Origin: an uncultured virus (IMG/VR IMGVR_UViG_3300002460_002270)
Lineage: Duplodnaviria; Heunggongvirae; Uroviricota; Caudoviricetes
IMG/VR virus record: IMGVR_UViG_3300002460_002270
Reading direction: 5' to 3' (one strand)
DNA: 64,000 nt
A model generated the notes under the pieces. That model searched no databases. It saw only the letters and a list, made by a program, of their open reading frames with translations, and was not told where the DNA came from. Positions 7,423-19,787 of the stretch are shown piece by piece. Both the position numbers and the translations under genes were made by a program. How positions within the stretch are numbered: position 1 is the first letter of the stretch; each line of letters starts with the position of its first letter.

Positions 7423-8166
7423 TGAGACGATGTCTAGCACCTTTGCTGCGTCGACGAGGTCCCTCACGACTGTGATGCTGACGCCCCTAGACAACGACTC
7501 AAGGATGGGTTGTGTTCCTTCCTTATCATGCGTTGGGATTGAGCATAGCATGCTGACAAGGTCGCCGCTTGAGTCAAACACGCCTGAGCCTGAGGAGCCT
7601 GGGACAGTGGGTAACGTGAAGACATGCATGCCGCCCAGCATTCCTGAATACACACCTATGAACGTGGGCACCATCTCAGGTGCGTAGTATCCACCCGGGG
7701 CTGCAATGTTGTAGATGACCTGCCCGCGCTTGAGCGGGCTGTCCGATAGCTTGGCTGGGTTTATGTCATTGGGCATTCCTTTCACACTCAACAGGCATGC
7801 GTCATCCTCGTTTGACACAGCATGGAGGCGTGCCTTGTGCTGCCTTCCGTGAATGTCAAACGCATAGAAGACGTGGCCCACGGAGTTGGAGCTTGTGCTC
7901 GTCCTGTTGCAAAAGTGCCGCGCAGTCAGCACGAACCCAAGCCCTGGGTCCCTTGCTGACCTGTGGACGAACACGCCTGAGCCGGACAGTATCGATATGT
8001 CGTCACATGTCTCGCAGACATCACCGTGGACGATCACGCCCTTCAGCAGCATGAATGACTCATACGGGACGTTGATTACGTCGTTCCCCTGTGTGAGATG
8101 CCTGCAGCTTAACCCGCTGGAAAGCATGCAACAGATGAATATGAAGAACGCGAGCATGTGTCTCAT
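7399..8166 (-). CDS. trypsin-like serine protease with N-terminal signal/lipoprotein-like segment
   Basis: LTARHFC, DACLL, GSSGSGVF catalytic triad motifs. Confidence 0.8.
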   Translation of the reverse strand: MRHMLAFFIFICCMLSSGLSCRHLTQGNDVINVPYESFMLLKGVIVHGDVCETCDDISILSGSGVFVHRSARDPGLGFVLTARHFCNRTSTSSNSVGHVFYAFDIHGRQHKARLHAVSNEDDACLLSVKGMPNDINPAKLSDSPLKRGQVIYNIAAPGGYYAPEMVPTFIGVYSGMLGGMHVFTLPTVPGSSGSGVFDSSGDLVSMLCSIPTHDKEGTQPILESLSRGVSITVVRDLVDAAKVLDIVSSTATAQP

Positions 8167-8447
8167 GCACATAACTATGTCCCATCTCTTATGAGATTGT
8201 GGTGAACAAAGCCGAGGCTGCGGTATACTATATCAAGATAGGACAAGGGTCCAGAATGACTGCGTTATATCAAGCTAACAGATGCTATCCATCGTGGCAT
8301 AATAGCCCGAAACAGCCCTCCTTCATTGGGCACGATAGCACAAAGGAGCTGGCTCTAACGTAGGGCTCCCACCGTCTCAAGCAGCCATTGGCCGTCTTGG
8401 GGCGGCAAGGGTGGTTGTTTGAAAACCGAATAATCCACAGTTCCGAA

Positions 8448-8507
8448 GCGGAGTGTGTTGAGCAGACCCTAGCGGGTCATGGGTTTGAGCCCCATCTCCT
8501 CGCACCA
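8448..8507 (+). pseudogene. degenerate tRNA-like element
   Basis: T-arm ATGGG-TTTGAGC-CCCAT and 3' CTCCTCGC-ACCA; GACCC/GGGTC stem with 4-nt loop; no D-arm. Confidence 0.35.
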
Positions 8508-8535
8508 GCGCGAAAGCCCTGGCGGAACCCGATGC

Positions 8536-8607
8536 GCCCATGTAGCATAATGGTGATGCAGCTGATTTGTAATCAGCAGATTGCACGTTCGAGTCGTGTC
8601 ATGGGCT
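8536..8607 (+). tRNA. tRNA-Thr(TGT)
   Basis: GCCCATG/CATGGGC; GCTGA-TTTGTAA-TCAGC. Confidence 0.9.
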
Positions 8608-8612
8608 TGTAT

Positions 8613-8687
8613 GTCGTTTGGAGGCAGATTAGTAAGCCGCCTGGCTGTGAACCGGGTGCTAGCGGGGGCAGAACCCGTCAAACGACC
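8613..8687 (+). tRNA. tRNA-His(GTG)
   Basis: GTCGTTT/AAACGAC; CCTGG-CTGTGAA-CCGGG; T-loop GGCAGAA. Confidence 0.8.
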
Positions 8688-8691
8688 TCTT

Positions 8692-8766
8692 GCCTGTGCG
8701 GTCCAGCCCGGAGTGGACGCCTCCCTGTCACGGAGGAGACCATGGGTTCAAATCCCATCATGGGCG
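8692..8766 (+). tRNA. tRNA-Asp(GTC)
   Basis: CCTCC-CTGTCAC-GGAGG; TTCAAAT T-loop. Confidence 0.9.
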
Positions 8767-8775
8767 TGATGAATA

Positions 8776-8855
8776 TGGGTCGGTGGTGTAAAAAGAGTAA
8801 TGGTAGCACACCACCTTTGCGGTGGTGATGGAGGTTCGAATCCTTCCCGACCCAT
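8776..8855 (+). tRNA. tRNA-Gln(TTG), enlarged D-loop
   Basis: TGGGTCG/CGACCCA; CCAC-CTTTGCG-GTGG; TTCGAAT. Confidence 0.65.
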
Positions 8856-8858
8856 CAT

Positions 8859-8946
8859 GGAGAGTTGCTTGAGCATGGTAAGAGACCGGTTTGCTAAACC
8901 GAGGTCGGGCAACACGCCCGCGGGGGTTCAAATCCCTCACTCTCCG
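8859..8946 (+). tRNA. tRNA-Ser(GCT)
   Basis: GGAGAGT/ACTCTCC; loop TTGCTAA; long variable arm. Confidence 0.9.
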
Positions 8947-8996
8947 CTATGAAGTGTGAATACGGATAGGGATGCCGCGGAGACACGGTCTACTGC

Positions 8997-9269
8997 GTGG
9001 TCCATGAGGGCAGGGTCAAGAGGATAACGTTCAGCAGGTCCCTGGCCGAGCATGTTATAGAGCGTGCAGGTAAGGGACGCGTTGAGAGGTTTGACGTCGT
9101 CCTGGGACGGGCGTTGGACATGGGTGAGACAAGCAGCTCTGGGCTGTATGCGCTTATCAGAACAAAGAACGGGCGTGTCCTTCGTGTTGCAACGTCGTTT
9201 GAAGAGGCTGACCTCCTATGTGACTACGTGTCGCGGTGTCTTTATGAGGCACGTCTTGTTATGATATGA
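8997..9269 (+). CDS. hypothetical protein (start uncertain)
   Basis: In-frame ATG at 8949 is separated from this ORF by a single TAG at 8967-8969. Confidence 0.5.
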   Translation: MVHEGRVKRITFSRSLAEHVIERAGKGRVERFDVVLGRALDMGETSSSGLYALIRTKNGRVLRVATSFEEADLLCDYVSRCLYEARLVMI

Positions 9270-9276
9270 AAATGAC

Positions 9277-9350
9277 GCGGGCATGATGTTAACGGACTAG
9301 CATGTTAGCCTTCCAAGCTAAATGTGTGGGTTCAAATCCCACTGCCTGCT
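9277..9350 (+). tRNA. tRNA-Gly(TCC)
   Basis: TTAGC-CTTCCAA-GCTAA; U73; G3.U70 pair. Confidence 0.9.
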
Positions 9351-9376
9351 CTCTTTGAAAATTGAATACAACCCTT

Positions 9377-9464
9377 GGAGACGTAGACCGCTATGGATGC
9401 GGGCGAGGCTGTAACCCTCGCGGTGCTTTAAGCACCCATCTGGGTTCAATTCCCAGCGTCTCCT
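9377..9464 (+). tRNA. tRNA-Tyr(GTA)
   Basis: GGAGACG/CGTCTCC; CGAGG-CTGTAAC-CCTCG; long variable arm. Confidence 0.85.
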
Positions 9465-9466
9465 TT

Positions 9467-9540
9467 GCTGAGATCGTCCAATCAAGCAGGACGCATGCAT
9501 GTTGCTGCATGAAATGTGGGTGCAAGTCCCACCCAAGGCG
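9467..9540 (+). pseudogene. degenerate tRNA
   Basis: D and T arms present; 8-nt anticodon loop ATGTTGCT; poorly paired acceptor stem. Confidence 0.5.
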
Positions 9541-9546
9541 TCAATC

Positions 9547-9615
9547 GTAGCAGTGGTGAAAAGCATCACACAGGAGAACCAATCCTGGGTTGTAGTATCG
9601 AACCTACCTGCTACG
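9547..9615 (+). tRNA. atypical tRNA-like RNA (nominal anticodon ACC)
   Basis: GTAGCAG/CTGCTAC; GTGA-AAAGCA-TCAC; CAGGA-GAACCAA-TCCTG; A33. Confidence 0.5.
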
Positions 9616-9681
9616 TTAAGTCAGCCATGAGGGATGGCTGTGAGTGTCAGCTGTTAAAGAGGCTGACATATCCCTCACCAC

Positions 9682-9751
9682 CCGGGAGTGGTGTAAAGCA
9701 ACACGGCAGGCATTGGGCCTGCAGATGGAGGGTCGCATCCTTCCTCCTGGA
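9682..9751 (+). tRNA. atypical tRNA-like RNA (nominal anticodon TTG, G3.U70)
   Basis: CCGGGAG/CTCCTGG-A; GTGT-AAAGCA-ACAC; GCAGG-CATTGGG-CCTGC; A33. Confidence 0.55.
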
Positions 9752-9757
9752 CTCATT

Positions 9758-9829
9758 GCCTCCATGGCGTAACTAGAAGCGTTCCTGATTCTTATTCAGG
9801 GGGTGGGGGTGCGATTCCTCCTGGAGGCA
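9758..9829 (+). tRNA. tRNA-Lys(CTT)
   Basis: GCCTCCA/TGGAGGC; CCTGA-TTCTTAT-TCAGG. Confidence 0.8.
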
Positions 9830-9887
9830 TGGTTATCAAGCCGTCCCGACAAGGGAATGTAGAAGACCTGCTGTAAAGCAGGCAAAT

Positions 9888-9958
9888 GCGCTTTTCATAT
9901 AACGGGATTATGTCTAGTTGAAGCCTAGAACATCTCAGTTCGACTCTGAGGGAGCGCA
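9888..9958 (+). tRNA. tRNA-Phe(GAA)
   Basis: TCTAG-TTGAAGC-CTAGA; CTCAG-TTCGACT-CTGAG. Confidence 0.85.
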
Positions 9959-9963
9959 ATTAA

Positions 9964-10035
9964 CCCGTCGTAGCTAACTGGACAGCAAGACTCTTTTAAA
10001 GTCGAGAATGGTGAGTTCGATTCTCCCCGGCGGGA
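9964..10035 (+). tRNA. tRNA-Lys(TTT)
   Basis: CCCGTCG/CGGCGGG; GACT-CTTTTAA-AGTC. Confidence 0.75.
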
Positions 10036-10040
10036 CTTTT

Positions 10041-10113
10041 TCACTCCAAGTATTCCAGCTGAAACGAGCGGCTGTTAACCGCTAAGAGGTGGGGGCAGCA
10101 CCCACGGAGTGAG
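10041..10113 (+). tRNA. tRNA-Asn(GTT)
   Basis: TCACTCC/GGAGTGA; AGCGG-CTGTTAA-CCGCT; T-loop GGCAGCA. Confidence 0.75.
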
Positions 10114-10129
10114 CTTCTTATTTATGCAG

Positions 10130-10474
10130 ATGGAACCCTACGTCTACAAGGCACGCTGCACAAGGGTCATTGACGGAGACACGGTCAATCTTGAGGTTGA
10201 CCTTGGTTTTCACGTCTTTATCAAACAGAGGTTCCGTCTATCGAGGATCGATGCCCCTGAGACGTACGGTGTGAAGAAGGACAGCGATGAGCACGCTGCG
10301 GGAACACTGGCAAAGGAACGACTCACTGAGCTCATCCTTGATAAGGACGTAGTCATAAAGACAGATAGGGACAGAGGCGACAAGTACGGTCGCTACCTCG
10401 TCGAGGTCATCGTCGATGGGACGAATGTGAATGACCTCCTGCTTGAAGAAGGGCTCGTTAAGGTATATTCCTAG
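10130..10474 (+). CDS. thermonuclease (staphylococcal nuclease family)
   Basis: RVIDGDT, RLSRIDAPE, DKYGRYL, NDLLLEEG. Confidence 0.9.
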   Translation: MEPYVYKARCTRVIDGDTVNLEVDLGFHVFIKQRFRLSRIDAPETYGVKKDSDEHAAGTLAKERLTELILDKDVVIKTDRDRGDKYGRYLVEVIVDGTNVNDLLLEEGLVKVYS

Positions 10475-10544
10475 GTGTGGGCTAACGGTAAGCCACCTCG
10501 TTTGGGGCGAGGGTATCATGGAGGTTCGATCCCTCTCACCTAGA
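10471..10544 (+). tRNA. tRNA-Pro(TGG)
   Basis: CTAGGTG/CACCTAG; CCTCG-TTTGGGG-CGAGG; overlaps nuclease stop codon. Confidence 0.9.
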
Positions 10545-10546
10545 TT

Positions 10547-10661
10547 TCAATAGGCGGCCAGCTCCCATGACGAGCTGCGAACGCGTCGATGGCAGACGGG
10601 AAAACGTCATCGATGGTCAGGCTGTGTGAAACTCCGAAATCACACAGCGATCGCCTGTTGA
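10547..10661 (+). ncRNA. candidate four-way-junction structured RNA
   Basis: 11-bp closing stem TCAATAGGCGG/TCGCCTGTTGA enclosing three hairpins. Confidence 0.5.
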
Positions 10662-10665
10662 GCCT

Positions 10666-10738
10666 CTAGACGTGATGTTGGTAGTCAACGGCGGTTCGGA
10701 TCCGTCTGTCATCGGAGGTTCAATTCCTCTCGTCTAGA
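10666..10738 (+). tRNA. tRNA-Pro(CGG)
   Basis: CTAGACG/CGTCTAG; GGCGG-TTCGGAT-CCGTC. Confidence 0.75.
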
Positions 10739-10809
10739 TCGTGCATTGGAATGGCATCTTCCTAATGGGACGACCTTGGTGGTTGTCGGGTCAAACCACC
10801 AAAACTTTT

Positions 10810-10882
10810 GGGGACATAGCTTAGCTGGGAAAGCGCTTGCTCGGCATGCAAGAGAGTGTGGGTTCGACTCCCGCTGTCTCCA
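10810..10882 (+). tRNA. tRNA-Ala(GGC)
   Basis: G3.U70; CTTGC-TCGGCAT-GCAAG (C33). Confidence 0.9.
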
Positions 10883-11200
10883 TCGATTTACATAACATGA
10901 GAATAGAGCTTCATTGCTTAAACGCACATCTGCTTGCATGCAGACATGGGACAGGTCAGAACCGTGGGTGCGTTGTTGTAACGTGCATGATGCTAGCTCC
11001 TGGACGTTCACAGCGCATGTTTAAAGCATGTCAATGCGAGGGTGACCACGCGGACGTATGGGTCCTATGATGGGCGCGGGTGCCCGTCAGGGCCAAATCA
11101 TCTGGGACGATGACGAAGCATGTGATAGACGCGCTTGATAGACCAAAAGACATTGAACATAGACTTTAAGACAACGATGCGTCCAGCAGGGCGCATCATC

Positions 11201-11275
11201 GCCGACGTACACCAATCTGGTAGAGTGAACAGTTTGAGAGACTGTGTAGTGGTGGTTCGAGTCCACTCGTCGGCA
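11201..11275 (+). tRNA. tRNA-Leu(GAG), short variable loop
   Basis: GCCGACG/CGTCGGC-A; ACAGT-TTGAGAG-ACTGT. Confidence 0.85.
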
Positions 11276-11280
11276 TGAAC

Positions 11281-11353
11281 GCCCTTGTAGTCCAACAGTA
11301 GAGATAACTGATTCAAACCCAGTCCAGTGTGGGTGCAACTCCCTCCAGGGGCA
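11281..11353 (+). tRNA. tRNA-Leu(CAA), short variable loop
   Basis: GCCCTTG/CAGGGGC-A; ACTG(A)-TTCAAAC-(C)CAGT. Confidence 0.75.
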
Positions 11354-11354
11354 T
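11328..11354 (+). repeat. 27-bp direct repeat, copy 1
   Basis: TGTGGGTGCAACTCCCTCCAGGGGCAT identical to 13987-14013. Confidence 0.95.
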
Positions 11355-11387
11355 TAACAGTATATACATCTACTGGTATAGTAGATT

Positions 11388-12230
11388 ATGAAAGTTCCAG
11401 TTCAAATTCGAAAACAAATCCCCGTAAAATGTCAATATTGTGACAAACAATTCAAGAATTGTTATTCAGCAGGAGCACATAAACCACATTGCTTGGGAAG
11501 AGGTCACATTCCTACACCCTTAGGGTCAACTGGATGGGCAAAAAATCGGACATCATTTAGCGATGATCGAATTCGCGCCAAAATTAAATCTGATAAAGTT
11601 TTTATTAGAAATTCAAAAGCAAGCAGAGGATATGTTAAACATATCGCTTTAAAGGAAGATTTGTTAAAGAATATCTGCAGTGAATGTAATAATCAGGGAT
11701 ATTGGAATGATAAGACGTTAATACTTCAAATTGACCACATTAACGGTATTCGAGATGATCATCGTTTAGAAAATCTTAGAATGCTTTGCCCAAATTGTCA
11801 CTCTCAAACAGAAACATACTGCGGACGAAGTAAAAAGACCGGACGAATTTCTGACGAGAAAATAATAAAAGCGCTTCATTCTTCAATATCAATTTCAGAC
11901 TGTATAGGAAAATTACGAGGGCGTCACGCACATAGAGTTCAAGTGTTAATGATTCAGAATGGTATTACATTTCCCGAACAGGTTAAAAAGTCTAAAAGAA
12001 AATACGGAGATAGAAAAGCATATTCAAAACATACAAAAACAAAAACGAAAACAATCGATGGACAAAGACTTGAAAAGTTATTTCAATCTGCTATCGATTT
12101 TTCAAAATTTGGATGGTGTCAAAAAGCAAGTAAAATTATAAACATGACGCCTCAAGCTATTTCTCGTTTTATGAAACGTGCATGTCCTAAATTTTATGAA
12201 GAGAAATGTTTCCATCGAAAGTCAAAATGA
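11388..12230 (+). CDS. HNH homing endonuclease with N-terminal Zn finger
   Basis: CQYC...HKPHC; LQIDHINGIRDDHRLENLRMLCPNCHSQT; AT-rich relative to flanks. Confidence 0.9.
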   Translation: MKVPVQIRKQIPVKCQYCDKQFKNCYSAGAHKPHCLGRGHIPTPLGSTGWAKNRTSFSDDRIRAKIKSDKVFIRNSKASRGYVKHIALKEDLLKNICSECNNQGYWNDKTLILQIDHINGIRDDHRLENLRMLCPNCHSQTETYCGRSKKTGRISDEKIIKALHSSISISDCIGKLRGRHAHRVQVLMIQNGITFPEQVKKSKRKYGDRKAYSKHTKTKTKTIDGQRLEKLFQSAIDFSKFGWCQKASKIINMTPQAISRFMKRACPKFYEEKCFHRKSK

Positions 12231-12272
12231 TCAAGCAGAAGTCTGTTGTGGGTTCGACTCCCACCTCAGGCA
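12222..12272 (+). pseudogene. 3' half of a long-variable-arm tRNA-Leu(CAA)
   Basis: TCAAAA-TGATC-AAGCAGAAGTCTGTT-GTGGG-TTCGACT-CCCAC-CTCAGGC-A; no matching 5' half nearby. Confidence 0.7.
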
Positions 12273-12348
12273 TAGTGGCGTTGGCGGTTGTGCCCATTGT
12301 GGCTCCTTCGGAGACCCCGAGGGTGTCCACTTAAATCAACCGCCGTTC

Positions 12349-12424
12349 AGGTCAGGAGCTAGGTCGTAGGGAACGACACCGGCTTCCAACACCGGCGCAA
12401 GGGGTTCGACTCCTCCCTGGCCTG
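12349..12424 (+). tRNA. tRNA-Trp(CCA)
   Basis: AGGTCAG/CTGGCCT-G; CCGG(C)-TTCCAAC-(A)CCGG; atypical D region. Confidence 0.7.
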
Positions 12425-12836
12425 CTAATAGCTGGACACTCTGTTGACAACGCCCCGTTAAGGCGGACCTAACTCAAGGAAGTGATTACCCTAGAGCGGT
12501 CTAAACGTTTGTCTGGCGGCGCTTTGTGGAGACGAGCATAGTCGTCCCGTCAGGTGAGATGGCGATAGCACTTGACGTTAAACCAACAGAAACCGCCACC
12601 CGCAGGACAAAGCCTGCATGTGTCCTTCAGGAAATGAGTTGGACACACATGGGCCCTCGTATGGGACAGCAGCGCTTAAGGCCGACAAATGGAGCTGCGC
12701 TTGCGGATCGGTTCGAGTCCGATAGGGTCCATCCCGTCTCACCTATCATTATGAGCATTGCTCATCACTCAAAGGCGACTGTGAATCGTCGGAGAGCCAG
12801 GGTCAAACTGCGTTGAGGCTAAACGTGGGAGCGGGA
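12425..12836 (+). ncRNA. candidate large structured ncRNA
   Basis: About 410 nt without a credible ORF; many local hairpins and long-range complementarities. Confidence 0.45.
12651..12731 (+). ncRNA. tRNA-like domain lacking D-stem and anticodon loop
   Basis: GGGCCCT/AGGGTCC-A (G3.U70); T-arm ATCGG-TTCGAGT-CCGAT. Confidence 0.65.
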
Positions 12837-12840
12837 CCAA

Positions 12841-12917
12841 GCTACTGTAGACCAACTTGGTAGGAGTCGCTCGTTTCAGACGCGAGAATCGTGTGAGTTC
12901 GAATCTCACCAGCAGCA
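12841..12917 (+). tRNA. tRNA-Leu(CAG), short variable loop
   Basis: CTCGT-TTCAGAC-GCGAG; GTGAG-TTCGAAT-CTCAC. Confidence 0.85.
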
Positions 12918-12952
12918 TATGGGTGTGCCGCAGCCCTAAAATGCGGCATCAC

Positions 12953-13025
12953 GCTCTCGTAGACCAATAGCAGAGTCACATGTCTTAGAAGCATGGTGTT
13001 GGGGATGCAACTTCCTCCGAGAGCA
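12953..13025 (+). tRNA. tRNA-Leu(TAG), short variable loop
   Basis: GCTCTCG/CGAGAGC-A; CATGT-CTTAGAA-GCATG. Confidence 0.8.
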
Positions 13026-13028
13026 TAT

Positions 13029-13101
13029 GCCGTTGTAGACCAACAGTAGAGTCAGGACACTTAAAGCGTTCGTAGTGTGGGTGCAAATCCCTCCAACGGT
13101 A
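13029..13101 (+). tRNA. tRNA-Leu(TAA), short variable loop
   Basis: GCCGTTG/CAACGGT-A; GGAC(A)-CTTAAAG-(C)GTTC. Confidence 0.75.
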
Positions 13102-13137
13102 TTTACAGTAGGCGTGTAATCTGTTATTTTGAACTAT

Positions 13138-13983
13138 ATGAAGGTTCAAAATAGAAAGCAAACTCCTACAAAATGTAATCATTGTAATAGAGTGTTCAAA
13201 AATGCTTATTCTGCAGGAGCGCACAAACCTCATTGCTTAGGTACGGGCTACAAATTTTCTACGATAAACTGTGCATGGAGCAGTGGCAAAAACGCTTATA
13301 ACGACTGTAGAGTACGTTCACTTGTATCAAAAGATGAATTATTTGTCAAAAACTCTAAAGCTAAGAGAGGACATATAAAACGTATAGCATTGACAGAAGG
13401 GTTGTTGCAAAATGTATGTGCATTATGTGGTCTTAAAGATAGCTGGAATGAGAAAATGATAGTTCTTCAAATAGATCATGTTAACGGAATTAGCGATGAT
13501 CATAGATTAGAAAATCTTCGAATGTTATGCCCAAATTGTCATTCTCAAACAAAAACATATTGCCGTAAAAATAGAAAGAGAGAATATCTTACAGACGAAC
13601 AAATTTTAGATGTAATAAAAATTGCAAATAATATATTTCATGTCACACAAATACTTGGAATTTCACCAAATAACACGGGACGAATCAAAAGCTTAATGAT
13701 TGAAAATTGTCTTACATTTTCAAGCTATGAAATAGAAAGAACACAGTTAATTCAAAAACAAACGATTATAAAAGAAAAGAAGCTTCGAGGGCAAAAAAAG
13801 CAAATACTATTAGAAAAGTTAATCAAATCTGACATTCAATTTGAAAAATATGGATGGGCAGTTAAGGCATCAAAAATTTTAGAAATTACGCCACAAAATG
13901 TATCAAGATGGATGAAACGCATGGCACCTGAGTTTTATGAACAAAGATGCTTTAAGCGACGAAGTCAAGCACGTGCTGCTTAA
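13138..13983 (+). CDS. HNH homing endonuclease, paralogue of 11388-12230
   Basis: YSAGAHKPHCLG and LQIDHVNGISDDHRLENLRMLCPNCHSQT nearly identical to first copy; AT-rich. Confidence 0.9.
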   Translation: MKVQNRKQTPTKCNHCNRVFKNAYSAGAHKPHCLGTGYKFSTINCAWSSGKNAYNDCRVRSLVSKDELFVKNSKAKRGHIKRIALTEGLLQNVCALCGLKDSWNEKMIVLQIDHVNGISDDHRLENLRMLCPNCHSQTKTYCRKNRKREYLTDEQILDVIKIANNIFHVTQILGISPNNTGRIKSLMIENCLTFSSYEIERTQLIQKQTIIKEKKLRGQKKQILLEKLIKSDIQFEKYGWAVKASKILEITPQNVSRWMKRMAPEFYEQRCFKRRSQARAA

Positions 13984-14012
13984 GCATGTGGGTGCAACTC
14001 CCTCCAGGGGCA
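13965..14012 (+). pseudogene. 3' half of a long-variable-arm tRNA-Leu-like gene
   Basis: TCAAGC-ACGTG-C-TGCTTAAGCA-T-GTGGG-TGCAACT-CCCTC-CAGGGGC-A. Confidence 0.7.
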
Positions 14013-14013
14013 T
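13987..14013 (+). repeat. 27-bp direct repeat, copy 2
   Basis: Identical to 11328-11354. Confidence 0.95.
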
Positions 14014-14072
14014 CAAAATTTTCTCTTCAAAGCTAAGAAAGTTCTTGGCGTGGCTCGATACTTACAACTATC

Positions 14073-14561
14073 ATGGTGAAGGTTAGAATCACAAGCAAGG
14101 GAATCATCCAAGAGCCGGGCGAGGGCACAGACCTGGGTTCAGGATTGCTGACAATCGACAATGCTAATCACACGGGCGTGCTTCCATTCAAGCAGACTGT
14201 GCAGGCTAAGACAGCTGACTTCACCGTTACGAATGCGAATGCCGGCGTGATGACGATCTCAGGAAGCCTTGTCATCACGGGCACGATGCCTGCTGCTGCT
14301 GATGCTGCTGGTGCGATATTCACGTTCAGGAACCTCTCAGCGGGTCATGAGCACACGCTGACGGGTTCTGACGCTGGTGTCGAGATGTTCAGCGAGCGCA
14401 TCAACTCAATCGGTGCAGGTGGGACATCTGCAATAACAGGCTCTAAGGGGTCACGCTTGAGGCTTGACACGATCGTTGGTTCATCTGTCACGCTGCTAAG
14501 TGACGGCGTCAATTACCTCATCCTTGGCCGCTCGGGCTCAATTACTCTCGATCAGGCCTAA
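14073..14561 (+). CDS. putative virion structural/decoration protein
   Basis: Gly/Thr/Ala-rich beta composition (KTADFTVT...SSVTLLSDG); TACTTA upstream. Confidence 0.5.
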   Translation: MVKVRITSKGIIQEPGEGTDLGSGLLTIDNANHTGVLPFKQTVQAKTADFTVTNANAGVMTISGSLVITGTMPAAADAAGAIFTFRNLSAGHEHTLTGSDAGVEMFSERINSIGAGGTSAITGSKGSRLRLDTIVGSSVTLLSDGVNYLILGRSGSITLDQA

Positions 14562-14576
14562 GACAACCCTTCATAC

Positions 14577-14647
14577 ACTCCTGTGATGTAATGGAAGCAT
14601 GCGTGGCTTCGAACCACGTCATGGGGGTTCAAGTCCCTCCAGGGGTG
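14577..14647 (+). tRNA. tRNA-Arg(TCG)
   Basis: CGTGG-CTTCGAA-CCACG. Confidence 0.85.
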
Positions 14648-14687
14648 CTCTCTTGCAACATCCAGCGCGAGCGCGTATTTAGCTAGG

Positions 14688-15635
14688 ATGGACGTTATCA
14701 GGCAGTTCCTCGTCCTTGAGGCCCGTAAGTGGATCGATGACTTCATACGCTCCTGGAGGGAGATACACGCCACTGGTGGGAAGCTTGGCGACGTCGCAAA
14801 GGAGTTTGGTATAACGCCTGAGGCAGCTGCTGCCCGGGCAACGAAGCTCAGAAAGATGAGCAATGATGCGAGCTTAGAGCTGTCAAAGCAGCAGCGCGCT
14901 GACTACAAGCTTCCCAAGTTTGCGAGGGGTCCAAGCGTAGAGACAGGCATGCGTGACGATCCCCAGCTTGAGCTCATGCCAGCTGCGATGACGCGTCAGG
15001 CACCTGAACTCATCGACATCATCAGGACGCTCAATGCGGCCAGCGGCTACACTGACGCTGCAAAGAAGCTAGGGATGAACCCATCAACGCTGAGGGGCAT
15101 TGCAAGCGACCTTAGGGACAAGGGCTATCCCGTGAAGACATTCAAGCGTGGACGACCTCCAGTTGTCGCAGGCTCGGTCACAAAGAGAAAGTTCATTGAG
15201 CTGTGGAACTCCGCTGGTAGCCCGCAGCTCGCTGCAGAACTTCTCAACTCAGAGGGCGGAAGCTTCACTGCCCAGAGTGCCTCGGCATTTGCGACAAAGC
15301 TGAGGGAGAAGGGGTTTGACCTGCAGAGCTTCACGCACCTAAGGGGTCGCAAGCGTGCCGGTGAGAGGCCCACGCCTGATGACGTCCTAAGGGACCTCGA
15401 GGCTGAGATGATGATCGACGACGGGCCCGATGAGCTTGACGATGGGGCGGACATCGATGACGAGGCTCAGGACGAAGACGAGGATGATGACACAGAGCGT
15501 GAGGCAAGGAAGGCCATGTTCGGTGACCTCGATGACGAGCTCGATGATGACAGCCCAGACGAAGATGGGCCCGATGACCTGGATGATGAGCTCGATGATG
15601 ACTTCGATGAGCTTGATGACGATGACCTAGAGTAG
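14688..15635 (+). CDS. triple HTH-repeat protein with poly-Asp/Glu tail
   Basis: Three units F/I..W/L...A..LG....A..LR.KG...F.RG; very acidic C-terminal region of about 75 aa. Confidence 0.7.
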   Translation: MDVIRQFLVLEARKWIDDFIRSWREIHATGGKLGDVAKEFGITPEAAAARATKLRKMSNDASLELSKQQRADYKLPKFARGPSVETGMRDDPQLELMPAAMTRQAPELIDIIRTLNAASGYTDAAKKLGMNPSTLRGIASDLRDKGYPVKTFKRGRPPVVAGSVTKRKFIELWNSAGSPQLAAELLNSEGGSFTAQSASAFATKLREKGFDLQSFTHLRGRKRAGERPTPDDVLRDLEAEMMIDDGPDELDDGADIDDEAQDEDEDDDTEREARKAMFGDLDDELDDDSPDEDGPDDLDDELDDDFDELDDDDLE

Positions 15636-15637
15636 GG

Positions 15638-15709
15638 GTCTCTGTGGTCCAATGGATAAGACGCATGCCTGCGAAGCATGCAATGTGGGTTCAACTCCCG
15701 CCAGAGACA
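15638..15709 (+). tRNA. tRNA-Arg(GCG)
   Basis: GTCTCTG/CAGAGAC; CATGC-CTGCGAA-GCATG. Confidence 0.9.
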
Positions 15710-15712
15710 TTT

Positions 15713-15783
15713 GCAGCTGTGATGTAACGGTAGCATGTCACCGTGCCAAGGTGGACGTGTGGGTTCAAGTCCCGCCAGCTGCT
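15713..15783 (+). tRNA. tRNA-Gly(GCC)
   Basis: GCAGCTG/CAGCTGC-T; TCACC-GTGCCAA-GGTGG. Confidence 0.9.
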
Positions 15784-15818
15784 GCACAGTTATGCAGGCG
15801 GCCCAGGGCCTGCAATCT

Positions 15819-15891
15819 GCAGGCGTAACGTAAAGGCAGCGTGGCGGTCCTACACACCGCATCTGTGGGGGTTCGACTCCCTCCGCCTGCA
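15819..15891 (+). tRNA. tRNA-Val(TAC)
   Basis: GCGGT-CCTACAC-ACCGC (C33). Confidence 0.85.
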
Positions 15892-15903
15892 TGGAGGAGA
15901 TGC

Positions 15904-16113
15904 ATGATAACAAAGAGACACGTGGATGATGCAACGCAACCGTGGGAGGAACGATACAGGAGGCTTGAGGCACATCACATAGAGGAGACGTCAGAGCTAT
16001 ACGCTGAGATCAAGAGGCTCAGGAAGCTAGCACGCACTCCGGTGTCCCAGGCCCTTGATGCGGCCATCGTCATCACAGCATTCATCTTCGTGCTTGCAGC
16101 AATCTTTTTCTAA
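15904..16113 (+). CDS. small membrane-anchored protein
   Basis: GGAGGAG SD; C-terminal hydrophobic helix. Confidence 0.55.
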   Translation: MITKRHVDDATQPWEERYRRLEAHHIEETSELYAEIKRLRKLARTPVSQALDAAIVITAFIFVLAAIFF

Positions 16114-16115
16114 GA

Positions 16116-16184
16116 GGGGAAGCCATAGGGGTGGCGTCTGGTCTTGCACACCGGAACGGGCGGGATCGTTACCCGTCTTCTCCA
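16116..16184 (+). tRNA. tRNA-Ala(TGC), shortened D-arm
   Basis: GGGGAAG/CTTCTCC-A (G3.U70); CTGGT-CTTGCAC-ACCGG. Confidence 0.7.
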
Positions 16185-16187
16185 TCT

Positions 16188-16258
16188 GCGGTCCTAGCTC
16201 AACGGTAGAGCACCGGTTCGACACACCGGCGACGTGGGTCCAACTCCCTCGGTCCGCA
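16188..16258 (+). tRNA. tRNA-Val(GAC)
   Basis: CCGGT-TCGACAC-ACCGG (C33); canonical D-arm. Confidence 0.8.
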
Positions 16259-16261
16259 TGA

Positions 16262-16332
16262 TGCTCCTTAGGCTAATGGGAAACCACTCGGTTCTGACCC
16301 GAGCATTGTGTGTTCGAGTCACACAGGAGCAA
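16262..16332 (+). tRNA. tRNA-Gln(CTG)
   Basis: TGCTCCT/AGGAGCA; CTCGG-TTCTGAC-CCGAG. Confidence 0.85.
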
Positions 16333-16337
16333 TCTAT

Positions 16338-16410
16338 TGTCCCGAAGAGCAAACGGCTGCGCCGGCGCGCTTTGAACGCGCTGTAGTGGGTTCGACCCCC
16401 ACCGGGACCA
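16338..16410 (+). tRNA. tRNA-Gln(TTG)
   Basis: GCGCG-CTTTGAA-CGCGC; GTGGG-TTCGACC-CCCAC. Confidence 0.8.
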
Positions 16411-16414
16411 TCAC

Positions 16415-16486
16415 GCTCGCATCGTTCACTGGTTAGGACCGCACTCTTTCAAAGTGCAGAATGGGGTTCAATTCCCCATGCGAGCA
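16415..16486 (+). tRNA. tRNA-Glu(TTC)
   Basis: GCACT-CTTTCAA-AGTGC. Confidence 0.9.
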
Positions 16487-16492
16487 TGCTTT

Positions 16493-16564
16493 CTAGCTGT
16501 CGTCCAGTAGCAGGATGCCCGGTCGGGATCCGGGTGGTCGCAGGTGCAAATCCTGCCAGCTAGA
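16493..16564 (+). tRNA. tRNA-Pro(GGG)
   Basis: CTAGCTG/CAGCTAG-A; CCCGG-TCGGGAT-CCGGG (C33). Confidence 0.85.
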
Positions 16565-16568
16565 CCAC

Positions 16569-16642
16569 GCGAGCATGGTAGAGATAGTTCTGAACGTCGG
16601 TCTGATAAACCGAAGAGCCAGGGGCAGTGCCTGGTGCTCGCA
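16569..16642 (+). tRNA. tRNA-Ile(GAT)
   Basis: TCGGT-CTGATAA-ACCGA; T-loop GGCAGTG. Confidence 0.8.
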
Positions 16643-16670
16643 CTCAATGATAGTAGTTATAATCTAGTAA

Positions 16671-16743
16671 CCGACGTGCGCGGCTAGTTGCTCGGCAGAG
16701 TCTTATAAACTCTAGCGGTTGTGGGCAGAACACAGACGTCGGA
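16671..16743 (+). tRNA. tRNA-Ile(TAT)
   Basis: CCGACGT/ACGTCGG-A; AGAGT-CTTATAA-ACTCT; T-loop GGCAGAA. Confidence 0.7.
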
Positions 16744-16744
16744 T

Positions 16745-16823
16745 CGCGGGATCGACTGGAGTTGGTGCCAGCACTAGTCTCATAAGCTAGGTAATAACGT
16801 GGGTTCGAGTCCCACTCCCGCAA
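16745..16823 (+). tRNA. tRNA-Met(CAT), initiator-like
   Basis: CGCGGGA/TCCCGCA with C1xA72 mismatch; loop CTCATAA. Confidence 0.8.
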
Positions 16824-16825
16824 TC

Positions 16826-17089
16826 ATGCGACCCAAACGATACGCGGAAAGAGGTGAGATTACGTTACGTGTTGAACCGAATGACACACCATTTGTGGGT
16901 CCTCCCCTAAAGTCTTTCGGTGTCTACAACCCGTCATACAGCATAATCTATTACGAGGGTGAGTTCTACAACTCACTGATGCTGAGGCCCTCACATGCCG
17001 TCTTCGGCGTCGTGGCCTGGGAGCTCAATCCCAAGAAGAGGATCAGACGCAGGACGATACGCACACGGCCTCAGCATGATGATGATTGA
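16826..17089 (+). CDS. hypothetical protein
   Basis: 87-aa ORF between tRNAs. Confidence 0.45.
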   Translation: MRPKRYAERGEITLRVEPNDTPFVGPPLKSFGVYNPSYSIIYYEGEFYNSLMLRPSHAVFGVVAWELNPKKRIRRRTIRTRPQHDDD

Positions 17090-17154
17090 CGGTGTCTGTT
17101 GGATGACGGGTGTTCACATTGAGCATAACGTTCATTACGTCCGTCATCCGTCAT

Positions 17155-17242
17155 GGAGAGTTGACCGAACGGCAAGGTGGCGGCCTCGAAAGCCGATGCT
17201 GCGCCTAGCAGGCGCATGGGGGTTCAAGTCCCTCGCTCTCCG
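17155..17242 (+). tRNA. tRNA-Ser(CGA)
   Basis: CGGC-CTCGAAA-GCCG; long variable arm. Confidence 0.9.
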
Positions 17243-17255
17243 TTAGAATGATGTA

Positions 17256-17285
17256 GTGTAAAATGGATGATGCGTGTGTTATGAT
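17256..17285 (+). promoter_or_regulatory. class-A promoter GTGTAA-N18-TATGAT
   Basis: Recurrent motif and spacing. Confidence 0.6.
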
Positions 17286-17294
17286 GAAACCAGA

Positions 17295-17507
17295 ATGAGG
17301 TTTCTTGTTGCGATTGCTGCCATCTTCATGTTATTTAGCTGTGCAGATGATGTCACGCTTAAGCTATGGCAAAAGTGTGAAAGCATCTGCAGTATAGAGA
17401 GCAAGATTCAATCTGTCACATGCAGCCACTGGGATGAGCGTTGTCGATGTCAATGTGCCAGCGGCGAGAAGTTTGCATTTCCGCGTAAACAAGCTAGGAC
17501 GAACTGA
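17295..17507 (+). CDS. small Cys-rich lipoprotein
   Basis: Signal peptide with LFSC lipobox-like motif. Confidence 0.55.
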   Translation: MRFLVAIAAIFMLFSCADDVTLKLWQKCESICSIESKIQSVTCSHWDERCRCQCASGEKFAFPRKQARTN

Positions 17508-17509
17508 TC

Positions 17510-18337
17510 ATGCCTGAGGGACCAGAAGTCAGGGTCACGACCGACTCACTTCGAAAGAGGATGGTGGATCGCCTGCTCTGTGGCGCGACCGCTGCATCAG
17601 GCCGCTATGTCACGCATGGCCCACCCAAGGGTTGGGACGTTCTCCACAAGAGGCTTCCCATGTCAATCACACAGGTGGGCTGCAAGGGAAAGTTCATCTA
17701 CATCCTACTCGAAGACGGCTCAAGCGTCTGGAACACGCTGGGTATGACAGGGAGATGGGCGTTGAGACGCAGCGAGCATACACGCGTCACCTTCATCCTC
17801 CGTGATGATGAGGATGACGAGAAGGGGACATTGCTGCACTTCGAGGACGCACGGAACTTCGGCACGTTGCGATTTGTGACAACCCATGATAGGCTTGACA
17901 AGAGGCTCGCGCTGCTGGGCCCTGACCCATTGGAGGAGAATGTCAACAAGTACGTCTTCAAGAAGCTCCTCAAGGAGACCAGGAACGTCAAGAGGACGTT
18001 GGCTGAGGTGCTGATGGACCAGAGGGTGCTGTCGGGCGTAGGGAACTACATCAAGTCTGAGTCACTCTATCAGGCCCTCCTGAGCCCATTCAGGACCTGT
18101 GGGTCGCTCGATGATGACGACGCCTACAGGCTGCACAAGGCCGTAATGGATGTGATGCAGACGTCCTACAAGGCGCAGGGGATGACGTTCAAGGACTTTA
18201 GGAATGTGGACGGTGAGAAGGGCATGTTTCGCTGCGTTGTCTACGGGCGGAAGCATGACATCATGAAGAATGAGGTGGTCAGTGTTGAGACGCCCGATGG
18301 AAGAACGACGTGGTGGGTGCCGAGCGTGCAGAAGTGA
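17510..18337 (+). CDS. Fpg/Nei-family DNA glycosylase/AP lyase (zinc-less finger)
   Basis: MPEGPEV, KGK, LGMTG, DARNFG, LGPD, GVGNY; C-terminal GRTTWWVP without a four-Cys finger. Confidence 0.9.
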   Translation: MPEGPEVRVTTDSLRKRMVDRLLCGATAASGRYVTHGPPKGWDVLHKRLPMSITQVGCKGKFIYILLEDGSSVWNTLGMTGRWALRRSEHTRVTFILRDDEDDEKGTLLHFEDARNFGTLRFVTTHDRLDKRLALLGPDPLEENVNKYVFKKLLKETRNVKRTLAEVLMDQRVLSGVGNYIKSESLYQALLSPFRTCGSLDDDDAYRLHKAVMDVMQTSYKAQGMTFKDFRNVDGEKGMFRCVVYGRKHDIMKNEVVSVETPDGRTTWWVPSVQK

Positions 18338-18353
18338 TGATGTATGTGAATTT

Positions 18354-18439
18354 GGAGGGTGCCACTAAGTGGTAGGTAACGGGCCTTGAAAGCCCGGGGA
18401 ACGTGATGAGCGTTCGGGGTTCGACTCCTCCACCCTCCG
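18354..18439 (+). tRNA. tRNA-Ser(TGA)
   Basis: CGGGC-CTTGAAA-GCCCG; long variable arm. Confidence 0.9.
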
Positions 18440-18532
18440 TAAGACGTTTCGCACACTGCATGATATTGAGGGAACAAGATGACGTAGGTAGCAATTGATT
18501 GGAAGATGGGCCTGCCCATCTGTGAGAATGAC

Positions 18533-18883
18533 ATGGCAGAGAAGCAGTTGAAGATGTATATCTTAGTTCGAGAGTCGATCCCGTTAGGATTAGGCGTAAA
18601 CTCCGTGGGACACACGGCGTTGGCGACGTATCTCAGGTTCAAGGACGACCCTGAGACGCAAGCATGGGTGACCAGCAGGCACTTCAAGAAGGTGACATGC
18701 GTTGTCTCAGACGAAGAGTTTGAGAGAGCCAAGACGTTTGAAGACTGCGTCGTCATGACTGAGAACGCTATTGGAGACGCTGAGGTCGCTTTGGGGTTCA
18801 AGCCGCGAGAGAGGTGGCCAGGGTTCTTTCGGGCGCTGCGGCTGTTCGGAAGTCATCTAAGTTTACAGGAGAAGCATGACTAG
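18533..18883 (+). CDS. peptidyl-tRNA hydrolase II (Pth2)-like protein
   Basis: KMYILVR...GHTA...W...FKKVTC...ALGFKPR...LRL pattern. Confidence 0.7.
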   Translation: MAEKQLKMYILVRESIPLGLGVNSVGHTALATYLRFKDDPETQAWVTSRHFKKVTCVVSDEEFERAKTFEDCVVMTENAIGDAEVALGFKPRERWPGFFRALRLFGSHLSLQEKHD

Positions 18884-18938
18884 CACATGCGCCTCTCTCA
18901 TAAGGAGGAGAAAGCGGGGGCAGCACCCGCTCCAGGTA
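18864..18938 (+). tRNA. tRNA with CAT anticodon (Met/Ile2), defective acceptor stem
   Basis: CCTCT-CTCATAA-GGAGG; T-loop GGCAGCA; TACAGGA/TCCAGGT pairs only 4 of 7; overlaps Pth2 ORF end. Confidence 0.55.
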
Positions 18939-18950
18939 TGGTCTAATCAC

Positions 18951-19021
18951 GCCCGCATAGTTCAAGGGTAGAACAAGCGTCTCGTAAGCGCTAGATGCCA
19001 GCTCAAGTCTGGCTGTGGGCT
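18951..19021 (+). tRNA. tRNA-Thr(CGT)
   Basis: AGCGT-CTCGTAA-GCGCT. Confidence 0.85.
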
Positions 19022-19025
19022 CTAT

Positions 19026-19105
19026 GCTGCTGTGGTCTAATGGATGGGCACCCGGCTTCTAACCGGGTGATAAACATGTGGGTTCGATTCCTACCAGCAG
19101 CGCCA
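19026..19105 (+). tRNA. tRNA-Arg(TCT) with encoded CCA
   Basis: CCCGG-CTTCTAA-CCGGG; ends GCCA. Confidence 0.85.
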
Positions 19106-19135
19106 ACCCTAATTGAGTGGATGATAGTTATGAAC

Positions 19136-19669
19136 GTGGACAGCCTTCGAAGCTACATCCGTCTTGTGCTAGAGGATACTGACGGCTCATTCCTGTCAGA
19201 CGGTGTCATCCGCAAGCTCATCTCACTCTATGCAAGCAAACCCGGAGGACAGCCAGACTTGAACTGGCATCACGTCTCATTCTCAGCATCCTCAAAACGA
19301 GGTCCCTGGGGAAACGTGGGAGGCATGTACGTCCCTGAAGATGTCACGCTGCTGATAAATAGCGACACACGAGGTGACATGCGAAAGAAGGTCAGGGACG
19401 TTCTCCATGAGATAGCCCACTACAACCAGCACATGGCCTGGAATGAGGATGATAAGGCACGCTTTGCATGGGTCAAAGGCCGTGGACTGCCTCCTGGGCG
19501 GGATAGTTATGACGTCTACGACATCTCATACGAGGAGATAGCAAGGTTCTGGAGGTCAAAGTACGGCTATCGTGACGCGCCACATGAGGTTGAGGCCAGG
19601 ACATTTGCGGACGCAAACCTAAGAGCTGCGATGGATGCGATAGCAGATGTCATCCAGGTCGCAGCATAA
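19136..19669 (+). CDS. putative Zn metallopeptidase-like (HExxH) protein
   Basis: LHEIAHYNQH...PHEVEAR; N-terminal SLRSYIRLVLE; TAGTTA 5 nt upstream. Confidence 0.6.
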   Translation: MDSLRSYIRLVLEDTDGSFLSDGVIRKLISLYASKPGGQPDLNWHHVSFSASSKRGPWGNVGGMYVPEDVTLLINSDTRGDMRKKVRDVLHEIAHYNQHMAWNEDDKARFAWVKGRGLPPGRDSYDVYDISYEEIARFWRSKYGYRDAPHEVEARTFADANLRAAMDAIADVIQVAA

Positions 19670-19672
19670 TAC

Positions 19673-19744
19673 GCTATCATAGCTCAAAGGATAGAGCACT
19701 CCCCCGGTACGGGAGCGATATGGGTTCAATTCCCGTTGTTAGCT
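19673..19744 (+). tRNA. tRNA-Thr(GGT)
   Basis: CTCCC-CCGGTAC-GGGAG (C33). Confidence 0.85.
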
Positions 19745-19750
19745 CTTTCT

Positions 19751-19780
19751 GTGTAAAGGTCATCACCATATTGGTATGAT
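19751..19780 (+). promoter_or_regulatory. class-A promoter GTGTAA-N18-TATGAT
   Basis: tRNA-Arg starts 7 nt after the -10 box. Confidence 0.6.
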
Positions 19781-19787
19781 AGACCAT

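Follow-up and report, generated by a model that had tools for sequence, protein, structure and literature searches.

HNH nuclease genes between short-arm tRNA-Leu genes and orphan class II tRNA 3' halves in the tRNA array of an uncultured phage

How does a nuclease gene come to end inside the remains of a transfer RNA (tRNA) gene, and how does this arrangement come to be present twice in the same array? The question is raised by a 64,000-nt stretch of DNA (hereafter the window) from the uncultured virus IMGVR_UViG_3300002460_002270, a member of the Caudoviricetes. The window looks like part of a large phage seen in groundwater and soil metagenomes. In its tRNA array, the same order of elements is found twice on the + strand: a short-arm tRNA-Leu gene, a spacer, an open reading frame (ORF) coding for an HNH protein (HEG1 or HEG2) and the 3' half of a class II (long-arm) tRNA gene (H1 or H2). 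The original prediction, made from the DNA letters alone, had described two such cassettes, and every element of both was recovered in place or nearly so. The explanation that we prefer, with a probability of about 0.55, is that the two units are free-standing HNH homing-endonuclease modules and that the halves are scars left by a single junction with a class II tRNA-Leu(CAA) gene in an ancestor.

Unit 1 extends from the first base of tRNA-Leu(CAA) to position 12272 and unit 2 from the first base of tRNA-Leu(TAA) to position 14012 (Table 1). The comparison of the two units, each of about 1 kb, gives identities of 73% for the tRNA genes, 58% for the spacers, 65% for the nuclease DNA and 63% for the halves, and the units are homologous over their whole length. 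The intact tRNA genes of both units are of class I length, are above the Rfam tRNA threshold and have in common the D-arm motif TAG(T/A)CCAACAGTAGAG. With an identity of 73%, they are the closest pair among the five tRNA-Leu genes of the array. The spacers measure 34 nt and 35 nt (13103-13137 for the second). Unit 1 is separated by 5 nt from its upstream neighbour, tRNA-Leu(GAG). The similar D-arms, a spacer of about 35 nt, an AT-rich zinc-finger/HNH gene, a stop codon of this gene located inside the 3' half and the lack of matching 5' halves had all been predicted, and all are borne out by the tool calls and measurements given here and below.

Table 1. Coordinates of the two units, of the tRNA-Leu genes of the array and of the related sequence elements.
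Feature	Position	Strand	Evidence
tRNA-Leu(GAG), 75 nt, short variable region	11201..11275	+	ARAGORN; Rfam tRNA 48.1 bits
tRNA-Leu(CAA), 73 nt, intact, short-arm	11281..11353	+	ARAGORN; Rfam 40.3 bits
Spacer 1, 34 nt; sigma-70-like TTAACA, 17 nt, TG-TATAGT	11354..11387	+	consensus scan
HEG1, 280 aa; N-terminal C2HC zinc finger, HNH core, C-terminal domain	11388..12230	+	ORF, Pfam, PHROG
H1, orphan 3' half of class II tRNA, read as Leu(CAA)	12222..12272	+	class II Leu model 18.2 bits; T-arm scan; geometry
tRNA-Leu(CAG), 77 nt, short-arm	12841..12917	+	ARAGORN; Rfam
tRNA-Leu(TAG), 73 nt, short-arm	12953..13025	+	Rfam tRNA 46.1 bits; anticodon loop read from sequence
tRNA-Leu(TAA), intact, short-arm	13028..13102	+	ARAGORN; Rfam 13029-13101, 37 bits
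Spacer 2; promoter-like TTTACA, 17 nt, TATTTT	13102..13137	+	consensus scan
HEG2, 281 aa, paralogue of HEG1	13138..13983	+	ORF, Pfam, PHROG
H2, orphan 3' half, class II tRNA-Leu(CAA)-type	13965..14012	+	class II Leu model 23.3 bits
27-nt stretch equal to 3' end of tRNA-Leu(CAA), 11328-11354	13987..14013	+	27/27 identical

The residues D116, H117, N119, H125, N129, C134, N136, C137 and H138 are invariant. The Pfam matches of the nuclease ORFs are to HNH and HNH_3: HEG2 scores 25.8 bits on PF01844 (cut-off 21.4), and HEG1 stays under the Pfam cut-offs (23.5 and 18.5 bits). Both proteins match PHROG HNH families with E values of 1e-29 to 2e-30. Membership of the Seg family of GIY-YIG nucleases was considered and ruled out, as only HNH families were matched. 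A sequence search of the PDB gave only weak matches to McrA (E 0.17 and 0.4). Judged from these profiles, HEG1 and HEG2 belong to the HNH (beta-beta-alpha-Me) endonucleases. Their C-terminal domain is found in a subset of the homologues, and a protein identical to HEG2 (P0001) is encoded on a separate public contig. The base composition of the two genes is foreign to the window, since their GC content is 0.34 (HEG1) and 0.33 (HEG2) against 0.51 for the whole window; it is about 55% in the array that flanks them.

To characterize the halves, we took 50 class II tRNA-Leu genes from other phage contigs and derived a covariance model (R1) from them. A search of 13 kb with this model detected H2 (E 3.9e-5) and H1 (E 1.2e-3). 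In both, the model aligns the V-arm (variable arm) hairpin, the T-arm, the 3' acceptor strand and A73; as it scores all tRNAs and is not specific for leucine, it backs these structural elements and not the amino-acid identity. H1 is composed successively of T33, CAA, the 3' strand of the anticodon stem, a V-arm of 15 nt, the T-arm (12248-12264), the 3' strand of the acceptor stem and A73. In H2, the V-arm is TGCTTAAGCA and the T-arm lies at 13988-14004. The best matches of H2 are long-arm Leu genes, and its V-arm is closely similar to those of loci L134, L151 and L087. By comparison with the Leu genes of other phages, the class II geometry places T-CAA at the anticodon position in both halves, and it is from this geometry and from A73 that we infer their Leu(CAA) identity. 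The end of H2 is also linked to the intact gene of unit 1 by a perfect 27-nt identity, which runs one base past the end of H2 and has no extension on either side. We read this identity as the possible product of gene conversion, or of a common origin with tRNA-Leu(CAA).

H1 and H2 are fragments of tRNA genes and not genes, because they have no 5' acceptor strand, D-arm or 5' anticodon-stem strand, and because the sequence upstream of them codes for the tail of a protein. No 5' half was detected in the window by ARAGORN, by Rfam or with the class II model. A loose search of the whole window for an acceptor strand plus a stem gave many chance-like matches, none with a D-arm. A forced alignment of the 5' part of H2 to GCACCTG at 13924 was rejected, being about at chance level and inside conserved coding sequence. 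The stop codons of the nuclease genes are inside the halves (TGA 12228-12230 in H1 and TAA 13981-13983 in H2).

The sequence AAGTCAA is present at both junctions (12219-12225 and 13962-13968). HEG1 ends with CFHRKSK and HEG2 with CFKRRSQARAA; homologues that share this C-terminal domain end with CFKRKLS (L006), CFKRKFRR (L012), CFKR (P0012) or CFKRVK (P0007), and the native C-terminus of the family is CF(K/H)RK followed by two or three residues. From this native C-terminus it follows that the nuclease gene's own DNA reaches CGAAAGT and that the tRNA-derived part begins at about position 33. The description of AAGTCAA as a sequence running into a long-arm 3' half therefore holds in that it occurs twice and is followed by an alignable V-arm, T-arm and acceptor strand; its AAG(T) is nonetheless the conserved coding end of the HNH gene itself, and the reading of CAA as anticodon comes from geometry. 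The reading frame of AAGTCAA differs between HEG1 and HEG2. What is conserved is thus the DNA itself, a sign of a single inherited junction rather than of two separate events. The junctions are present, unchanged, on contigs of four other metagenome runs from three studies, so the arrangement is not an assembly artefact.

The position of the break in the anticodon loop, which is the classical place of tRNA introns, might suggest an intron-containing or split tRNA, in which the 3' halves would be exons and would be linked, as RNA, to 5' halves from another place. We hold this to be most improbable. No group I or group II intron was matched in the region 8000-21000 (Rfam, E up to 1) nor in 12200-12860 at E up to 10; the 34-35 nt before the ORF, with none after it, leave no room for an intron core; no 5' exon was found in the window; and a conserved protein tail is encoded directly upstream of the junction. 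With the ORFs directly flanked by tRNA sequence, a promoter-like spacer ahead of them and no intron family matched, HEG1 and HEG2 are free-standing genes.

A phylogenetic tree was obtained from 132 HNH proteins, after removal of the ORFs shorter than 130 aa, of those without a clear ATG or stop and of identical copies. HEG1 and HEG2 are sisters in this tree, with a support of 97 in the Shimodaira-Hasegawa-like approximate likelihood ratio test (SH-aLRT), and the protein of locus L005 is the next nearest. Since the nucleases are sisters, the two junctions are most simply explained by one inherited event. The genes HEG1, HEG2 and that of L005 each lie 34-37 nt 3' of a short tRNA-Leu (CAA, TAA and GAG, respectively), in all cases called by the tools. 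The gene of L006 follows a tRNA-Leu(TAG)-like sequence that was read by eye and has no ARAGORN call.

Both spacers contain promoter-like hexamers, which begin at the first base past the 3' end of the tRNA, and the distance from the end of the -10 element to the ATG is 5-7 nt (5 nt in unit 1). In L005, TATAAT is present at the position equivalent to the -10 elements of the units. These elements are consensus matches, of which the AT-rich region yields many (15 found for 6.5 expected). They suggest that the module may carry its own promoter and yield a leaderless mRNA.

According to our preferred explanation, a module would consist of a promoter, a nuclease ORF, probably expressed from a leaderless mRNA, and flanks travelling by co-conversion; this co-conversion is suggested by the homology of the whole unit. 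The family normally sits between two tRNA genes, with its stop codon abutting the 5' end of the downstream one, which is usually intact, and in the ancestor of the sister modules the downstream gene would have been a class II tRNA-Leu(CAA). Positions 1-32 of this gene could have been lost by an illegitimate right-hand join during double-strand-break repair of a tRNA gene that had been cut, or by a small later deletion with the same outcome. The last conserved codons of the nuclease gene would in this way have been fused to tRNA position 33. The unit of about 1 kb (short tRNA-Leu, promoter, nuclease gene and 3' half) would then have been copied to a second site in the Leu block, and the 3' end of H2 would later have been homogenised with tRNA-Leu(CAA). 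In T4 intron homing with limited homology, one-sided homologous repair combined with an illegitimate join would reportedly leave an orphan piece beside an intact copy. The loss would have been tolerable, for the broken gene is probably dispensable: the five short-arm tRNA-Leu genes together cover every Leu codon. By analogy with T4 SegB, intronless homing would be the simplest account of the locus.

Several observations weigh against this account. Concerning homing itself, no nuclease-free allele and no close relative genome were found among the phage, viral-contig and metagenome matches listed. The mobile unit of the original prediction thus stands in that tRNA, spacer, nuclease gene and half act as one repeated unit around a free-standing HNH gene, and falls short in that no empty site accompanies it. 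A blastn search of the phage collection gave 5 weak matches only, to the HNH core, and a single-sequence scan of viral contigs gave no relative. The best matches listed from profile scans of viral, metagenome and genome contigs have 36-46% identity. The stretch is present in 15 sequencing runs; four runs with partial shares consist of fragmented low-depth contigs, which leave rare variants beyond reach. All four runs cover the nuclease genes, and none shows a joint. A further difficulty is that the T-arm and V-arm helices of both orphan halves are still clean, although the identity between the proteins is only 46%. Because a scar that has long been neutral should decay, such helices would indicate recent separate acquisitions, gene conversion (as seen for H2) or a function. 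The register of H1 is ambiguous, a second one being possible with TCAAGC at 12231-12236. The short tRNA-Leu that this subfamily keeps upstream is compatible with co-conversion and, equally, with a tRNA gene and a nuclease gene that form a linked unit. Finally, related nucleases share their tRNA labels, so the counts made on the tree (see below) overstate independence. Separately, a scan with the D-arm motif recovered 4 chance matches, without tRNAs.

The distribution of the family was analysed from profile scans, which recovered at least 80 viral, at least 79 metagenomic and at least 80 bacterial loci; some loci are the same contig in two collections (L006/L085 and L014/L093), and the counts are not all independent. 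Among the matches listed, tRNAs are present in 76 of the 80 viral loci, in 145 of the 159 viral and metagenome loci and in 74 of the 80 bacterial loci. In the bacterial loci listed, the HNH gene is mostly located just 5' of tRNA-Gln(CTG)-tRNA-Glu(CTC), in Eremiobacterota-type genomes, or inside cyanobacterial tRNA arrays, including those of Nostoc, Calothrix and Phormidium. For the 146 HNH ORFs listed with both ends inside their locus, a tRNA starts within -60 to +60 nt of the stop codon in 63 cases, a tRNA ends at most 150 nt upstream of the ATG in 61 cases, and both are observed in 34 cases. The question had been raised whether the homologues consistently sit between a full tRNA and a 3' half. 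The link to tRNA genes was confirmed in the 145 loci mentioned; the 3' half was not, as most of the relatives listed have a whole tRNA or nothing downstream. On the tree, the type of the downstream tRNA changes 23 times; 200 shuffles of the labels give 32.2 changes on average and never fewer than 28. The type of the upstream tRNA changes 35 times, and here the shuffles average 40.7 changes, the lowest value being 36. This is a hint which suggests that lineages hold to their downstream tRNA more than to their upstream one.

Two loci of the family show other contacts with tRNA-Leu sequences. In L027 (3005-3040), the HNH ORF runs 36 nt into a downstream tRNA-Leu(TAA), and its stop codon is, by coordinates, the TAA anticodon itself. 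In L014 (2903-3000; the same 455-kb phage contig as L093), the 5' part of a tRNA-Leu-like sequence is found 3' of the HNH stop codon; it breaks off in the anticodon loop, past CTT, where an intron may interrupt it.

Broken or duplicated tRNA pieces were also found beside other members of the family. In L086, a perfect direct repeat of 27 nt, corresponding to T-arm and acceptor, lies on either side of the nuclease gene. In L100, an intact tRNA-Gln is located upstream; past the stop codon, its 3' end recurs over 33 nt that differ by one mismatch. L079 is the mirror image: a 35-nt copy of the leader and positions 1-29 of a long-arm tRNA-Leu(TAG) stands upstream and the intact gene downstream, the break in this class II tRNA being at position 29/30. 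To judge by these repeats, some members of the family interrupt a tRNA gene and keep an intact copy via partial duplication. Orphan 3' pieces were detected in L054, L056, L061 and L069. The 95th percentile of the flank-repeat score is 19.4, against 12 in a control of mismatched pairs (control maximum 19).

The persistence of the helices can be explained in another way, namely that the orphan halves are kept for a function, either as a right-hand homology arm via the conserved T-arm or as a 3'-end or processing structure of the nuclease mRNA. We find this explanation quite unlikely. The helices are intact in spite of the divergence of the proteins, and H1 folds as an extended hairpin with a z-score of -2.2; H2, on the other hand, has an ordinary fold (z-score -0.88), and the sequence has no U-tract terminator. 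The density of orphan T-arm motifs just past HNH stop codons is about double that in the rest of the loci (21 motifs in 19.4 kb, compared with 333 in 649 kb; Poisson P 0.0015), although the motif used in this count is loose. T-arm DNA is a plausible common handle, since the available text on T4 SegB gives GGTTCRANTCC, a T-arm motif, as the sequence that it recognises (PMC2330249). Against a general function of the halves, a whole tRNA or nothing occupies this place in most of the relatives listed, and gene conversion alone accounts for the conservation of H2.

The original prediction went further and proposed a self-complementing drive: the HNH enzyme would cut class II tRNA-Leu genes in the anticodon region, and the linked short-arm tRNA-Leu, devoid of the site, would replace their function, which could account for a swap from class II to class I-like tRNA-Leu. 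We regard this mechanism as unproven and doubtful; the anatomy on which it was built is real and non-random. The short tRNA-Leu genes upstream of HEG1, HEG2 and the L005 gene (and, by eye only, of the L006 gene) are in its favour, as are the start of both halves at position 33 of a class II Leu(CAA)-type gene and the break at 29/30 of a class II tRNA-Leu(TAG) in L079 with the intact copy kept. It would also agree with the Leu genes of the window: all five intact genes (GAG, CAA, CAG, TAG and TAA) measure 73-77 nt with short variable regions, the Ser and Tyr genes are long-armed, and apart from the two halves next to the nuclease genes there is no clear remnant of a class II Leu gene. The tree, moreover, tracks the downstream tRNA type, which is here the broken one.

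These points are opposed by several others. The two junctions are most simply a single inherited event of sister nucleases. The intact neighbour in unit 2 has the anticodon TAA and not CAA, and this disagrees with the linked replacement tRNA that had been proposed. Upstream of neither unit is a resident 5' half present, though a simple insertion would leave one. The family abuts many tRNA types, short and long Leu alike. Cutting at the anticodon is not upheld as a family rule, as the breakpoints in the other loci range from about tRNA position 26 to 49. Lastly, no enrichment of short tRNA-Leu genes is seen next to HNH genes: the adjacent Leu genes comprise 16 short and 15 long ones, those in other places 28 short and 39 long ones (P 0.39), a result that argues against a class swap carried by the HNH cassettes. 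In its strongest form, which we judge unlikely, the proposal would make of the short-arm tRNA-Leu and the HNH module a gene drive that removes long-arm tRNA-Leu by recognising the anticodon and V-arm region, decoding being ensured by the linked class I-like tRNA without the site. If this were true, the spread of such a drive would help to explain why 44 of the 98 Leu genes called in the fetched nuclease-bearing loci are at most 79 nt long, and why short Leu calls are seen in cyanobacterial tRNA arrays too.

Concerning the Leu genes themselves, tRNA-Leu(TAG) was not called by ARAGORN. The tRNA-Leu(CAA) of unit 1 has the T-loop TGCAACT and a D-loop without GG. Seven tRNAs (9757-9830, 11281-11353, 12953-13025, 13028-13102, 16493-16567, 19787-19861 and 20164-20238) have a T-loop that starts with TGC(A/G)A, with G in place of U55, and all seven have AG in place of the usual GG in the D-loop. 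The pairing of these changes looks like a covariation of the 18:55 elbow pair.

In the whole window, ARAGORN called 36 tRNA genes, 35 of these within 8536-20238, and no tRNA for Trp, His, Asn or Ile. The search with Rfam adds further tRNA genes. Two tRNA-like genes missed by ARAGORN are located at 8777-8854 (Gln(TTG)-type look, large D-loop, 40.9 bits with the class II Leu model) and at 9467-9540 (weak). The region between the two units contains three other elements. Directly 3' of H1, a hairpin of 72 nt (12276-12347) has a predicted energy of -33.4 kcal/mol (z-score -3.6), a stability equalled in none of 200 shuffles, and matches no Rfam family. It is followed at 12348-12424 by a tRNA-like element with a 9-bp acceptor stem, a 4-bp T-stem and the anticodon-loop sequence UUCCAAC (CCA, Trp-like), which has weak tRNA-Sec and covariance-model matches only. 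The third element, at 12651-12731, is tRNA-like as well and combines a well-formed acceptor stem and T-arm with a reduced D-arm; its anticodon loop contains CUUAAG and is enlarged by about 12 nt. It scores 24 bits with the class II Leu model and may be a decayed or odd tRNA-Leu(UAA). Outside the main array, ARAGORN called a tRNA with anticodon CTA at 36904-36975, which would read the TAG stop codon; the long ORFs of the window stay open under the standard bacterial code.

The other genes of the window include RNA ligases, phosphoesterases, PhoH, a helicase and two further homing-type nuclease genes. The three RNA ligase-like genes and several phosphoesterase/phosphatase genes (4758-5780, 21002-22256, 22495-23109 and 26086-28137) form a set reminiscent of tRNA repair modules. 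The two nuclease genes belong to other families (28317-28871, HNH, phrog_16726; 31448-32389, homing endonuclease, phrog_314) and are both outside the array. At 33557-36248, a malate synthase-like gene and an isocitrate lyase gene lie side by side (Pfam E 1.5e-45 and 1.2e-92); these are both enzymes of the glyoxylate shunt, in a phage-like context.

That homing endonucleases occur in phage tRNA clusters was already known, with T4 SegB as the model. The present analysis adds that a single HNH family of wide occurrence is associated with tRNA genes, both in phages and in the chromosomes of bacteria, that it inserts at the ends of tRNA genes with base-level precision, and that it sometimes breaks the tRNA gene, so that an intact copy and a dead piece come to lie on opposite sides. 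The dead pieces mark points of breaking and rejoining and provide testable guesses for the cut sites. The locus shows how selfish nuclease genes remodel tRNA arrays. It also highlights the short-arm tRNA-Leu genes, which are common in these arrays and whose charging by leucyl-tRNA synthetase (LeuRS) is directly testable. A narrow literature search gave no report of orphan tRNA halves beside phage HNH genes, nor of short-arm tRNA-Leu in phages.

The units can be compared with four known systems. Integrase-borne islands and prophages duplicate the 3' end of a tRNA gene, with an intact tRNA on one side and an orphan 3' piece on the other. The HEG units have the same layout, being bounded by an intact tRNA gene and by an orphan 3' piece. 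They differ in the lack of an integrase, their mobile gene being an HNH nuclease, and in the imperfection of their repeats, which are identical at 21 of 27 and 23 of 27 positions.

T4 SegB is a free-standing GIY-YIG homing endonuclease encoded in the tRNA gene cluster of T4; according to the available text of its report, it cuts within the tRNA genes of relatives that lack it and is co-inherited with the flanking tRNA genes, the recipient markers being lost (PMC2330249). Like HEG1 and HEG2, SegB is encoded by a free-standing gene within the tRNA array of a phage. The likeness is one of lifestyle and not of family, the GIY-YIG fold of SegB contrasting with the HNH core and zinc finger of HEG1 and HEG2. 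The target of SegB is, in the same text, a T-arm motif, and the text does not describe an orphan tRNA half or a fused junction (PMC2330249).

HNH genes are linked to tRNA arrays in mycobacteriophages and in the long tRNA arrays of cyanobacteria, for example all8564 (PMC6409571, PMC8421152). In the portions of these reports at hand, an HNH homing-type gene is conserved beside or inside the arrays, as in our case, and is proposed to spread them. The same portions differ from the present locus in reporting no broken tRNA halves or duplicated pieces (PMC6409571, PMC8421152).

A similar arrangement is offered by fungal mitochondria, where, as far as the accessible text goes, free-standing homing ORFs are located between a gene and its partial C-terminal duplicate, for example in cob and atp6 (PMC6279837). 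As in the HEG units, an intact gene is followed by a nuclease ORF and by an orphan 3' piece of the same kind of gene. Contrary to the fungal examples, in which the hosts are organelle protein-coding genes and the nucleases are of the LAGLIDADG or GIY-YIG families (PMC6279837), the hosts are here the tRNA genes of a phage and the nucleases are HNH proteins. Moreover, the orphan piece and its intact neighbour here belong to different structural classes, the former being long-armed and the latter short-armed.

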